Below the pieces are notes generated by a model, which had not been told where the DNA came from, did not search any database, and saw only the letters and a list, made by a program, of their open reading frames with translations. Made by a program: the position numbers and the translations under genes. This document shows positions 795 to 34,778 of a DNA stretch of 64,000 bases, in pieces. The DNA comes from Mobula hypostoma (lineage: Eukaryota). The stretch spans positions 79,238,001 to 79,302,000 of the forward strand of contig NC_086108.1 in NCBI RefSeq assembly GCF_963921235.1. Direction: 5' to 3'. Positions within the stretch are counted from its first letter, which is position 1. Every line of letters starts with the position of its first letter.

Positions 795-2002
795 AGAAGG
801 AAATCAAGAGAATACAGTCAGAGACAGTAGCTGGAATTTTAGTTATAGTGAAAGGAAATTAAAATTACACTAGGTTGCAGTATTTTGCAGGTCCTAATTT
901 TATAAAAAATACGATCAATATTATACTTGTAATTAATCTAGATCATTGGTGTTTCATTTTGCAATTCTTGATAAAATATTATCGTGAAGTACGTCCAATA
1001 TATGACTTGCAAGCAAGGAAACCTGAGAGTGCCCCTGCTTCTGTCAGCAACTCAAAGCCCACACTGTTACGTAAATGCTAAGGGGGAAGACGCCTGTTCC
1101 CATTATACTGAACACACATACTTCTTGTAAGAATAGAAAAGGCAAGCATAAAGCATTCAGAGTGAAAGCTTTCATATGTCTTTTTGTCTTTATCTTCAAA
1201 ATATCTTACTTTGTGGATTATCAGCAATGCCCTCAGTCTAAATAACCAACCATTTTGGAAAATGAAATACCCTGCAGCTATCTGCAGGGAGAATGAGCAA
1301 GAAACAATGTTCTGCTTTTGAGTTTAAATGCTGCGACCACAAGGGAAAATGAAGGGAAATAAATTGCCCAGAGGCAAGATTTTGAGGAAGAACTTAAGTT
1401 TGCTTGATAGAATAGAATGAATGAATTCTCTTCCCAAAACCCTGAGGACCTCTTAATTCAATAACTTGGAACAGAAAATTGTGCTTATGGAAGTTTAATC
1501 AGCAAGATGTTTTTGAAATCTTAATGGAGCTCTGCAGCTCTTCAAAGTTCAGACCTCAGTCAGTGCTAGAAGCAAATAGTTTGACTCTGATATAGGAAGA
1601 GTAATAGGTGATTGGAGTGATAATAAAGCAGTAACCTAATCGAGGGTTTCAGATGAAAGAAGACCTGTGTTGCTGCTAGGTTTGAGTGGTTTCTGCCTGA
1701 CTCCTGAACACCTTGATTAGATTACTGCTTTGTAATCTTATCAGGTTTCTTTGCTGCATTTCCTTTTTGTAAGGTTAAATATATAGAGTGATAAGTTTGC
1801 CTTCGTTCACTCCTATAATCTGTATGCAGCAGTACTAACCACTGCTATACCCACCTCCAGCCATTCAGTTCCATTGTCATTGAAGTAAAGGCCCAACAGA
1901 AGAGCAGGGCCTTATCTTTCACAGTACCCTCCTAATTGGATCCTGGGAACAGTATGTAGTTTTATATATCAACAGACAGTGTGTGTGTGTGTGTATATAT
2001 AT

Positions 2003-2537
2003 ATGAGGAACTCTGCAGATGCTGGAAATTCAAACAACACACATCAAAGTTGCTGGGGCATTAGCGGAGGAACAACACCTTATATTCCATCTGGGTAGCC
2101 TCCAACCTAATGGCATGAACATTGACTTCTCTAACTTCTGCTTATGCTCCACCTCCCATTCATACCCCATCCGTTATTTATTTATATACACACATTCTTT
2201 CTCTTTCTCTCCTTAGTCTCCCTCTGTCCCTCTGACTATACTCCTTGCCCATCCTCTGGTCCCCCATCCCCACTTGTCTTTCTCCCCGGACCTCCTGTCC
2301 CATGGTCCTCTCATATCCCTTTTGCCAATCACCTGTCCAGCTCTTGTCTCCATCCCTCCCCCTCCTGTCTTCTCCTATCATTTTGGATCTCCCCCTCCCC
2401 CTCCCACTTTCAAATCTCTTACTAGCTCTTCCTTCAGTTAGTCCTGACGAAGGGTCTCAGCCTGAAACGTCGACTGTACCTCTTCCTAGAGATGCTGCCC
2501 GGCCTGCTGTGTTCACCAGCAACTTTGATGTGTGTTT
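2003..2537 (+). mobile_element. Penelope-like retroelement 3' remnant with inverted 5' terminal copy
   Basis: Encodes EEQHLIFHLGSLQPNGMNIDFSNF (PLE GIY-YIG C-terminus); the 3' end of 2010-2055 is the inverted complement of 2516-2536; 22-bp direct repeat at 1948-1969 and 2563-2584. Confidence 0.8.
2440..2475 (+). ncRNA. minimal type I hammerhead ribozyme motif in Penelope terminal repeat
   Basis: AGTC-CTGACGA-A-GGG(tctcag)CCT-GAAA-C-GTC-GACT: core boxes, helix II, GUC cleavage triplet, helix I AGTC/GACT. Confidence 0.65.
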
Positions 2538-2664
2538 GATATATATATATATATATATATCAAACAGTATGTAGTTTTATATATTGTTCTGTTTATAATT
2601 CTTGCTGCCCCAGTAAAACAGACAGCAAAATTAAAGACCCCACCTCCCAAAACATTCTCTTTTC

Positions 2665-3285
2665 TCGCCTCTCCCGTCGGGCAGAAGATTCAAAAGCCTG
2701 AAAGCACATACCGCCAGGCTCAAGGACAGCTTCTACTTCACTGTTATAAGACTATTAAATGGTTCCTTAGTATGATGGGAAGGACTCTTGACCTCATAAT
2801 CTACCTTGATATAATCTTGCACCTTACTGTTTACCTGCACTGCACTTTCTCTGTACGTAGCTGTTAGAATTGTTTTGCCTTGCTCTATCTCAATACACAT
2901 GGCGTGTGGCCAAGTGGTGAGGGCGTCGGGCTCACGATCTGAAGGTCATGGGTTCGAGTCTCGGCCAAGGCAGCGTGTTGTGTCTTTGAGGAAGGCACTT
3001 AACCACACACTGCTCCAGTCCACCCAGCTGAAAATGGGTACCGGCAAAATGCTGGGGGTTAACCTCGCGATAAACTGGCGTCCTATCCGGGGGTGGGGGG
3101 AGAGTCTCGAACTCTCAGTCGCTTCACGCCACAGAAACTGGCATAAGCACCGGCCTGATTGTCCACAAGGCTCAGGACAGACTTTAACAATCTCAATACA
3201 CAGTGTAATAATTTGATAAACACAAACAATATGCAAGACAAGCTGTTCACTATATCTTAGTGCATGTGAAAATAATAAACCTGTA
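2665..3285 (+). mobile_element. Rex1/Babar-type LINE 3' end, split by a SINE
   Basis: LPSGRRFKSLKAHTARLKDSFY-like C-terminus, then 3' UTR with AATAAA at about 3274. Confidence 0.65.
2900..3189 (+). mobile_element. tRNA-derived SINE
   Basis: A box TGGCCAAGTGG, B box GGTTCGAGTC, CORE-like tgtgtctttgaggaaggcacttaacc; 13-bp TSD atctcaatacaca at 2887-2899 and 3190-3202. Confidence 0.85.
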
Positions 3286-3309
3286 CCCATTCTAAATCCA
3301 AAATGTCTT

Positions 3310-4110
3310 ACAAACTAAGTTGCTCTCTTTCAGATAGTCTGCTTCTGGACTTAATCTTGTCTCCTACCTATGTACAGTCCTCCTGACTTTGTTTAGAGAC
3401 TGCTCTTGTTCATCATTCAGTTTCACCATGTGTGAGTTGGTCAACAAGCCTTCTTGATGGTTCTTCTATGATTGGCATCTGTTCCTCTGTTATGGGAAGA
3501 TCACTCTCATAGCAACACACACAAAATGCTGGAGGAACTCAGTACGCCAGGCAGCATCTTTGGAAAACGAGTAAGCAGTCAACGTTTCGGGCCGAGACCC
3601 TCCTTCAGACCCTTCCTCCCTCATAGTCTTGTATGATCTGGTGCATGTTGGGAGTTGAATTTCATCTGTTTGTCAGGTGAGGTTTTTATTTCACGGTGAC
3701 AGTGGTAGGTAGTTTTAAGTGGCTTGCCTGTCTTCTTTTGGCTGCTTCCAGTTGGCCTCTTCTAATATCCTTGTTTTTACAGACTTTTTGTTGTTGTTTG
3801 GTGCAGAGGTTTGGGTCATCTGCTCTTGAGTCTCAGTGCAGGACTGTTCAATATCCCTATGGCTGGGATTTTGTAGAAATCCTCAAGTGGGGTTCTATTT
3901 GTAATAACAAAACCTTCTCCAGCATTTTCCTTGGCAACCACCACAAGGTTATCTGCCTTTTCACCTCTCTGTCAGGTGATCAAGCTGCTCTTCCTTTGAG
4001 AACCTCTTCAGTTTGTCTGCTGTGTACTGTAGTCCATTATCTGTGGTCAGCTCCTCAGGGATGGCACATCTGGCAGACTGTCCTTTGAACTTGAGAATGA
4101 TTAATGATAA
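3310..4110 (-). mobile_element. decayed Gypsy integrase fragment, interrupted by a Penelope-like piece at about 3512-3610
   Basis: Minus strand reads ARCAIPEELTTDNGLQYTADKLKRFSKEEQLDH, like the Gypsy IN core (ARxGIPEELxTDNGPQY). Confidence 0.65.
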
Positions 4111-28433: not shown

Positions 28434-28681
28434 TGTTACGTTTTGTAACCTCAGCACATTAAGCTAATTCAAAGGAAGACACAGCAGTCCAGGAGTGCAG
28501 GTCTAACTTCCCGTTTACTTTTAAGCAATGTGCAGATGTGGTAGCGTGATGAGGTATGCAAATCATGTATTTTTACATATAACTGGTAATTAATTATTTA
28601 AACAAACAGGGATGCTAAATCGAACAATATACTGTATATACAAGATTACTCAAATATTATTGCAATATTAAATACACAACA
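28434..28681 (-). repeat. 3' LTR of RBM25-carrying Gypsy element
   Basis: TGTTG...TAACA termini directly after a purine tract; homologous to 34548-34778. Confidence 0.8.
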
Positions 28682-28915
28682 CTCCTCTCAGCATAGCTAT
28701 AAACTCCAACTTAATAGAGAATGTATCAACTATATAAACAGTACTCTATATACTACAACTACTATATGCAAACTTCCACACCATAGTAAATTTTAAAGCG
28801 TCCCATTCAGGCCCAAGTGGCTGTGAAACAATCCCAGGTTCTGGGGCCTCCTCCATGGTGCTTGTAGGAGTTGATTATGAGCCTGCAGGAAGTGGCTCTG
28901 AAATTGGTAGCCACC

Positions 28916-29463
28916 TTTCTCCTTACATTTTCTTCTTCTAGTTCGCACATTCTGATCTTGGGAAGATGCATTTAGTTCACTGGAATGTTTCTCTTATTAA
29001 TTCTTCTATTGCTCCCTTTATGATCTGATCTTTCCACATCCACAACATCATCTGATGAATCCTCTGTTTTTGTATCTCCATTGACTCCCTTATTTTTGGC
29101 CGTCCATTCACCTCCTGGGCTTTTATCTTTGCATTTAATTTTACAGGCAGCTTTTTGTCACTCACTTGAAGTTCATGCAATAACCTTAATGCATGCAAAG
29201 CAGATTCTGGTTCTTTATATTCACAAAAGCCAGATGCTTGCAACTTTCCCAAAATTCCTTGAACTTGCTTTGAGCTTAAAACCAAGCTGCATTTTGCGAG
29301 TAAGTGCCTGATTAATGTACCAGAAGCTTTCTCAGATATGTTGCCTACAAAAGCTTTTGTAGTGAAGCCATTGCTTTCATCACTTTCATGATTTCAGAGC
29401 AACGTGGTCCTTCCTTTGTTCAATATGCTTTCAAACCAGAGGCACAAATGTTGGCACCAACAC
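28916..29463 (-). pseudogene. RBM25: processed RBM25 fragment (RRM and following region), with stops and frameshifts
   Basis: VLVPT...RKDH...FVGNISEKASGTLIRHLLAKCSLVLSSKQVQGILGKLQASGFCEYKEPESALHALRLLHELQVSDKKL...DQIIKGAIEELIRE...SSELNA matches vertebrate RBM25 as recalled; no introns. Confidence 0.93.
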
Positions 29464-30698
29464 CTCTTTGTCCTCTGTTGGGCAACGGTTCATAGTGTTC
29501 GGCATGAAGACATTTGAGGCATCATCCAGTACCTCTCTTAATTCACTTTTATTTGGTTTCATGGCAGGCGTCATGGGATGGAAATAGTGGATGAGTCCCC
29601 AATCAAGTTGTAGATGTCTCAGCCAATCACATCCCCACAATGCTGGTCCTGCTGTTTTTACTACATACAAGCTCAATGTGGTTTGTTGGTTGTTGTATTT
29701 CACTGTTACGAATGTCATTCCCACAGGAGTTATCTTTTCTCCAGTACAAGTTGTCATTTGGATATCAGCAGGCTTTAGTTTGGTATCTTTGAAATATCAT
29801 TGAAATCCTTTTTGTGGAATGACTGGGGCAGCTGAGCTAGTGTCCAATTTTATTTTAATTCATTTGCCATTCACTTCTGGTGTAAGCCATATCTCTTCTC
29901 TCCTGTTAGTTTTCACATTGTAAATCCTAAGGCTAGCTAGTCCTGTGTCACTCTCATCATAATCAGATTTTTCATCAACAGCATGCAGATTAGTGCTCTT
30001 TTTGAAACTGCAACTTGACTTTTTAGCTTTTTCTCTTCCCTGCACAGTCCATTTATTTTTGTCTGCAAAATGCGCTTTGTATGTGCCCTGCTTTGTTGCA
30101 GTTTCTGCAAGTTTTGCTCTTAAATCTGCATTGGCTTGATGTATGTGAGACCCTGCAACAACGACAACACAATTTGCTTGGCCAGTCTGGTTTCTGTTTA
30201 GATGCTGCTCATCCTTGTCTGCAACTCAATTCTGTTTGCAGTTTCCATTGAAACAGTGATTCAACTGCTGTTTTAAATGTGAGCTGTGCTTTAGTTAGGA
30301 GCTATTTTTGAATGCTTTCTTGTAAAATTCCACAAACTAAACAATTTCTCAGTGCATCGTAAAGCCCGTCACTGTATTTTCTTTTCAGGACTGCAAAAGA
30401 GCATTGTTGGCTCTTTCTTGGCAAGCTTTAGGTAGGCCCACGTTTTCAAAACTGTTTTTTATTTTACCTATGACCTTTCACTTAGAATACTGCTTATCTG
30501 AGACCTGCATGGGTATTGTACAGCATCGCACAGCAAATTACAATGGTAAAGGAGTACAATTTTGACTTTTTATTGGTTAAATTATGCTGCTTTTGAATAG
30601 ATGTGAGATCAACTGACTGCCTCAAATGGTAAAATGGAAGCCTTGGCATTTGTGACCAAAAATCACTCAGTTTGTACATTTGATGAATAGATTTTTTT

Positions 30699-34243: not shown

Positions 34244-34778
34244 GAACCACTTCCTGTGGTCTCAGAGTCAATGCCTACACTCACCACAGAGGAGTCCCCA
34301 GACCTGACATTGTTTCACAGCCACAAGTCTCGCCTGGCAAGCAGAGTGATCCTCTTTGACAGGAAAGATGTTATCCCACAAGAGTAAGAAATCCTCCACG
34401 GTGATTAAATGTTTAGGCCTGAATGGGACAATTTAAAACCTACCATGCTGTGAATTCTGCACATAGTTGCATTATATAGTATACACTGTGTATATTGCTG
34501 ATGCATTCTTTATTGAGTTGGACTTAATAACTAGGGAGAGAGAGGAGCATTGTATATTTAATATTTCAGTATTATTTGAGTAATCTTATATATATTGTTT
34601 GATTAAGCATTCTTGTTTGTTTTAATAATTCATTATGAGTTACATGTAATACTACGTGAATAACATGCATCATCATGTTACCAAGCGATACGTGGTCACC
34701 TCAGTAAAAGCAAACTCAAAGTTAAGCCCATATTCCTGGACTCCCGTATCCTCCTTTGAATTAGTTAAAACAACAACC
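34244..34778 (+). mobile_element. Gypsy 3' end (integrase tail, PPT, LTR), same family as 28434-30375
   Basis: Shares ccacttcctg...tttcacagccac...ggcctgaatgggac and LTR sequence; PPT agggagagagaggag at 34533-34547. Confidence 0.8.

Follow-up and report, generated by a model that had tools for sequence, protein, structure and literature searches.

The minus strand of a 64,000-nucleotide stretch of the Mobula hypostoma genome (contig NC_086108.1, hereafter the window) carries a Gypsy element in which intronless sequence of the splicing factor gene RBM25 lies where pol would be expected, raising the questions of how a host mRNA came to occupy that place, whether the chimera multiplied, and whether the captured RRM was of use to it. 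Read along the element, the copy begins with the 3′ part of gag (29950..30374), recognized by profile search and including a CCHC zinc knuckle (Pfam zf-CCHC E of 0.0027, short of the cut-off), and continues into a gag-protease linker, an aspartic protease region with an LDT motif near 29846, and a further linker (29515..29949), all in common with the parent Gypsy element to 29515. The RBM25 insert follows in the sense of the element (29521-28916, 606 nt), and after it come the C-terminal tail of the parent's integrase (28817..28915), a 3′ untranslated region with a polypurine tract at its end (28682..28816), and a 248-bp 3′ LTR of the form TG...CA (28434..28681). Profiles and alignments bear out the original prediction for gag, the protease region, the integrase tail from 28915, the purine tract, and the LTR. 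The 5′ LTR, the PBS, and about 570 nt covering the leader and part of gag are missing, as are about 90 nt deleted at 28817, and without a 5′ LTR the TSD of this copy is unreadable. In-frame stops at 29433 and 29396 and several frameshifts interrupt the RBM25 part, so the copy is non-coding now, as predicted: it is dead, 5′-truncated, and belongs to the shortest class of a deletion series.

The insert matches the Pfam RRM_1 profile (E 1e-5) and its best named protein relatives are vertebrate RBM25 proteins (55-60% at the amino acid level), which agrees with the predicted intronless, sense-oriented RBM25 fragment. The RBM25 gene of the host was located on contig C1 (99.79-99.84 Mb, minus strand) with a C-terminal protein probe; a Pfam PWI search for it gave three matches, none of them RBM25-like by tblastn. 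Under exon labels of the authors' own (E2-E10, X, and Y), the insert of the window copy is 84.6% identical to the host gene (499/590 aligned bases) and joins the end of E3, X, E4, E5, E6, and E7 end to end, with the five host introns absent. By host-exon match, the last 3 nt of E3 and the 48-nt cassette exon X occupy 29464..29514, and spliced E4-E7, encoding the RRM and the following helix, occupy 28945..29463. The segment 29511-29464 had been read as a remnant of the start of RT; that assignment is rejected, as the segment matches exon X (88% over 50 nt), which in the host has a pyrimidine tract and AG and GT ends (C1:99832633-99832586; L334:3787-3834). The insert therefore begins at 29521 rather than at the proposed 29463 and is 606 nt long instead of about 550 nt; its other end had been placed exactly, at 28916. 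It is also not RRM plus helix throughout, as had been supposed, and its last ~30 nt are not one exon end. Nested internal deletions have brought together small remains of three exons there, with the start of E9 and E10 sequence to nt 28 (28916..28944) ending in a 3′ microhomology.

Exon X has a companion in the host gene, the 30-nt exon Y (C1:99837475-99837504; L334:8676-8705), which lies between E3 and X, the two being small in-frame cassette exons between E3 and E4. The joints E3-Y, Y-X, X-E4, and Y-E4 occur in contigs from public runs that may be RNA (two runs for X). Exon X is present in three of the 136 proteins compared, each of which clusters with the RBM25-like protein of Heptranchias perlo, and one of the three reads E3 straight into X, which is the captured form. 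Exon Y is absent from all 246 mapped element loci. The family thus preserves an old RBM25 splice form, with exon X in and exon Y out.

The full extent of the captured segment is seen in the two longest copies (L129 and L143), which start at E3 nt 41, reach E10 nt 28, and hold 1,072 nt of host mRNA from nine exons, with eight introns missing. Among the 246 mapped loci, no host sequence extends past either point, and 28 loci end at E10 nt 26-31. At the 5′ junction, 7 nt from the end of host exon E3 also occur in the pol of the parent (29515..29521, with one mismatch in the window copy). The three bases after this microhomology match E3 and not the parent in most copies shown, which places the join inside the exon; a splice origin of the 5′ junction was rejected because these three E3 bases precede exon X. 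At the 3′ junction, parent and host share 9 purine-rich nt, a match that is exact in only three parent loci with the tail junction in view (L250, L317, and L333) and decayed in the others. Microhomologies of these lengths are expected at a random junction with chances of 6e-4 (7 nt, 5′) and 5e-5 (9 nt, 3′). Both junctions were inspected for a poly(A) tail or TSD at the insert ends, and neither was seen.

The parent is a Ty3/Gypsy LTR retrotransposon, with two 248-bp LTRs (TG...CA), a TGG-starting site after the 5′ LTR serving as PBS, a purine tract, a 5-bp TSD, and the Gypsy domain order, RT_RNaseH preceding Integrase_H2C2 and rve. At the insert site it has about 2.5-2.7 kb of pol, in which Pfam recognizes RNase H and integrase; RT gave no Pfam match on the broken pieces scanned and was identified by eye. 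This pol was replaced by RBM25, as had been predicted, and not split by it. Other deletion derivatives of the parent, free of RBM25, rejoin the tail at or near a purine-rich site before the integrase tail (L314, L321, L325, L329, L330, and L096), with L096, L314, L325, and L330 using the same site as the chimera. These derivatives multiplied too and are possibly further non-autonomous subfamilies.

The chimera is not confined to the window. An exact 23-mer across its 5′ junction occurs 155 times in the genome and the corresponding parent form 394 times, with no occurrence of the reversed controls; the chimera thus accounts for 155/549 exact junction matches. RBM25 was found in all 90 chimera-junction copies examined among the matches listed, of 155, versus none of 50 parent-junction loci, as expected of the propagated non-autonomous subfamily that had been proposed. 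Since the exact 23-mer is held by nine of 92 copies found otherwise, the 155 occurrences correspond to about 1,600 copies (873-3,390), and per-site divergence gives about 2,100, for an estimated family size of 1,600-2,300 copies. A first look gave 3,131 candidates for the insert with both junctions (the 40 scored were 78-82% identical), and 2,337 and 359 candidates for host exons E4 and E8, none of these verified as copies. All 58 host-exon probe matches lie inside the element, and there is no RBM25 retrocopy outside it among them.

In 28 two-ended elements, the 5-bp flanks agree at 3.18 of five positions versus 1.36 when shuffled, a value reached in none of 5,000 shuffles, and 13 of the 28 have a TSD matching at four of five positions or better. 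Dispersed two-LTR copies with their own TSDs indicate that the chimera moved as a unit, and with one structure throughout and RT and integrase absent, it is a non-autonomous LTR element. The copies share one pair of junctions, which points to one capture as the founder of the family. Shared LTRs and a recombinant locus suggest mobilization in trans by the parent's enzymes, all copies seen being decayed. The recombinant (L094; C96:23886500-23894500) has the parent's gag, protease, and RT start, followed by 70 nt from the end of RBM25 E7 and then by the chimera tail; together with the near absence of long-range linkage among copies, it suggests that chimera RNA was packaged along with that of the parent and recombined with it. 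Between its parent part and the chimera 3′ end, L094 has a LINE insertion.

These observations very probably mean that the window holds a dead copy of a Gypsy subfamily whose pol was replaced by spliced RBM25, likely captured once, through two template switches guided by microhomology, and later probably carried along as a non-autonomous passenger of the parent. Capture at the RNA level had been predicted, and the loss of introns (five here, eight in the longest copies) and the microhomology at both junctions support it. Under this model, RBM25 mRNA would have been co-packaged in a particle of the parent, where RT would have left the RNA of the element close to the integrase tail, switched to the RBM25 mRNA and copied it backwards from E10 as far as E3, and then rejoined the element RNA just after the protease. 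The product, with LTRs, PBS, PPT, and leader, could have been moved in trans by the parent's RT and integrase, and later switching may have trimmed the repeat-rich E8-E10 in stages and combined RNAs of the chimera with those of the parent.

Two other routes to the same structure were considered. Read-through transduction, in which an element in or upstream of RBM25 was fused from its protease to the gene by a deletion or splice, with one RT switch restoring the 3′ end, is improbable. Its appeal lies in a 5′ junction only 3 nt before a splice site, with a GT in the parent three bases after the junction, and in two solo LTRs belonging to the family, which lie no more than 70 kb upstream of the first coding exon of the host gene (C1:99876650-99876890 and 99906403-99906635), yet both LTRs are antisense to RBM25, no internal element sequence occurs in the 150 kb examined, and the E3 bases before exon X in most copies shown put the join inside E3, although the same structure would result if DNA had been deleted at this microhomology. 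Far less credible is a LINE-made processed RBM25 pseudogene that landed in a Gypsy copy and was then reshaped by deletions and amplified, even though LINE-like RT frames abound in the loci examined: the 3′ end lies inside the coding region, pol was replaced, microhomology is present at both ends, and every probe match lies inside the element. The class of LINE-1-type processed pseudogenes is rejected, poly(A) tail and TSD both being absent, and the exclusion of a LINE-made retrocopy in the original prediction stands.

After the capture, the insert was shortened, and the copies form a nested series of deletions. Of the 90 junction-selected copies, 62 were measured, 32 belonging to the shortest class and 30 being longer. 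A derived two-residue variant in exon X occurs in 38/105 short copies (36%) versus 12/77 long copies (p 0.002), and one tail variant is confined to short copies (15/40 versus 0/44 long); the higher frequency of the first and the exclusiveness of the second indicate that the short forms arose later.

Whether the captured domain mattered to the element was addressed in an alignment of 182 copies with at least 700 aligned bases, duplicates removed. A joint gag/protease-RBM25 reading frame, raised in the original prediction, is present: one frame common to gag-protease and RBM25 has a single common-stop column (34%) over about 620 codons, from 1,284 nt upstream of X through E7, versus 52 and 66 such columns in the other two frames over the whole alignment. 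In a natural copy (L174), 345 codons are open across the junction, the longest among 246 loci. The shared open frame implies that the family spread with gag, protease, and RBM25 fused in frame. Rare variants have N/S of 0.7-1.1, about neutral, and linked variants (four in gag-protease, none in RBM25) are not numerous enough to compute dN/dS on branches. The common state of the family is separated from the host by 22 synonymous and five non-synonymous changes, none of the five in the RRM. Over 196 codons, a single copy has on average 16.8 ± 6.1 changes that are synonymous and 47.3 that are not (147/182 copies). At least 22 synonymous changes are reached by 10% of single copies. As the host difference falls within the single-copy range, the burst would have closely followed capture, and identity of the RRM needs no selection in the element; purifying selection in the host appears to explain the RRM pattern.

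It is unlikely, but the same capture may have been aided in its spread by an in-frame Gag-protease-RRM fusion, or by RBM25 RNA acting as an export, stability, or packaging signal, kept by selection during the active period of the family. The open frame and its 345-codon example fit such a history, as do several further observations: in 65 junction-selected copies, E3-E7 are retained in 90-98% and E8-E10 in 17-23%, the commonest deletions (450 and 453 nt) keep the frame, the RRM amino acids of host and family are identical, and the chimera makes up a large share of exact junction matches. An in-frame 5′ junction and an in-frame dominant deletion, each expected by chance in one of three cases, are unexplained by pure passenger status. 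Retention, however, falls as the density of direct repeats rises (rho -0.84, with positions that depend on one another), just 13 of the 30 longer deletion forms are in frame, no excess over chance, the derived change in exon X rose to more than a third of short copies, RBM25-free derivatives multiplied as well, and the synonymous differences from the host are those of a single copy. There is no annotated protease-RRM fusion among proteins of 154-492 aa (19 matches, none exceeding 47% query coverage). A specific form of this idea, in which a translated Gag-protease-RRM fusion bound element RNA and gave the chimera a replication edge, the family then trimming all but the RRM, is likewise unlikely; if it is true, one of the largest captured-fragment amplifications in a vertebrate was driven by a domain from a splicing factor of the host. 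Although the original prediction implied that the RRM was important to the element, there is no sign of selection on it in the 182 copies, whose star-shaped tree gives little power against brief selection. Most likely, the RRM rode along without a role. An intact frame under purifying selection, which would mark a domesticated or oncogene-like transduced gene, is not found.

The copies are old and neutrally decayed. LTR pairs have a median K2P of 0.24 (0.16-0.33; 38 pairs with at least 120 aligned bases, among 104 loci), and no young copies were seen, the best non-host match to E4 being 93%. The host protein differs from the Heptranchias perlo RBM25-like protein at seven of 194 residues, a closeness that marks the host as a cartilaginous fish; the copies agree with the host at six, and at the seventh they keep the outgroup residue (114/157), so that the capture is younger than the divergence from Heptranchias but older than the substitution in the host at the seventh residue. 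At least one other organism also has the chimera, since a contig from its public run covers window positions 29192-29790 and thereby spans the 5′ junction. Dating in years was rejected: at the epaulette shark rate of 7e-10 per generation (PMC10587355), 0.12 substitutions per site equal about 1.7e8 generations, which is not credible.

The mechanism is a known one, and the scale is unusual. In LTR-mediated retroposition of metazoans, as set out by Tan et al. (2016; PMC5131818), partial spliced mRNAs replace internal ORFs, with microsimilarity at the switch points (median 6 bp), and the BLASTOPIA element has a preferred switch-back site (section 5). The RBM25 chimera shows every feature of this process that was tested: it lacks introns, has lost internal ORFs, carries microsimilarity at both ends and neither poly(A) nor TSD, has a preferred switch-back site, and spread onward as a non-autonomous element. 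The purine-rich site at which the parent's derivatives rejoin resembles the BLASTOPIA site described there. Among vertebrate LTR lineages, CrocERV29 (KIT-ligand) and CrocERV31 (nectin3) likewise captured a host mRNA and then replicated (PMC4299795); these are retroviral, with nine and six copies and near-complete ORFs under purifying selection, whereas the RBM25 chimera is a Gypsy element with a gene fragment, thousands of copies, and neutral decay. Maize Bs1 (PMC13317346) also holds host gene fragments in an LTR element with a chimeric frame, but is a plant element with three captured genes, and HERV-K FAM8A1 (cited in PMC5131818) is a host gene fragment in an LTR element found at one human locus; neither is a vertebrate subfamily of high copy number. 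Known vertebrate captures range from one to nine copies (FAM8A1 via PMC5131818; PMC4299795). No paper on this RBM25-carrying family was found in the literature searched, by title and abstract start or by whole words, and it may be catalogued in Repbase, Dfam, or supplements. Overall, the capture is real and well supported, and the non-autonomous subfamily is large and of no evident function.

The family illustrates the reach of LTR-mediated capture in a vertebrate, where a single event gave rise to RRM-coding fragments estimated at two thousand, or about 0.2% of the genome. Its copies are a fossil record of template switching that documents one capture, a hot spot of switching back at which deletion derivatives of the parent rejoin as well, the gradual removal of sequence rich in repeats, and exchange with the helper by recombination. 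In related fishes, the family will also make RRM and RBM25 appear more numerous than they are in gene annotation and read mapping.

Some copies may have been duplicated secondarily. Loci L151 and L158 (C96:22.42 Mb and 23.60 Mb) are 98.5% identical, every other pair reaching at most 88%, and are likely a segmental duplication; a tandem partial duplication of the insert is present at L151/L181. In the window, a second 5′-truncated remnant of the same Gypsy family, with integrase tail, 3′ UTR, and LTR, lies on the plus strand at 34244-34769, 3.9 kb from the chimera and opposite in orientation, and is too short to be assigned to parent or chimera.
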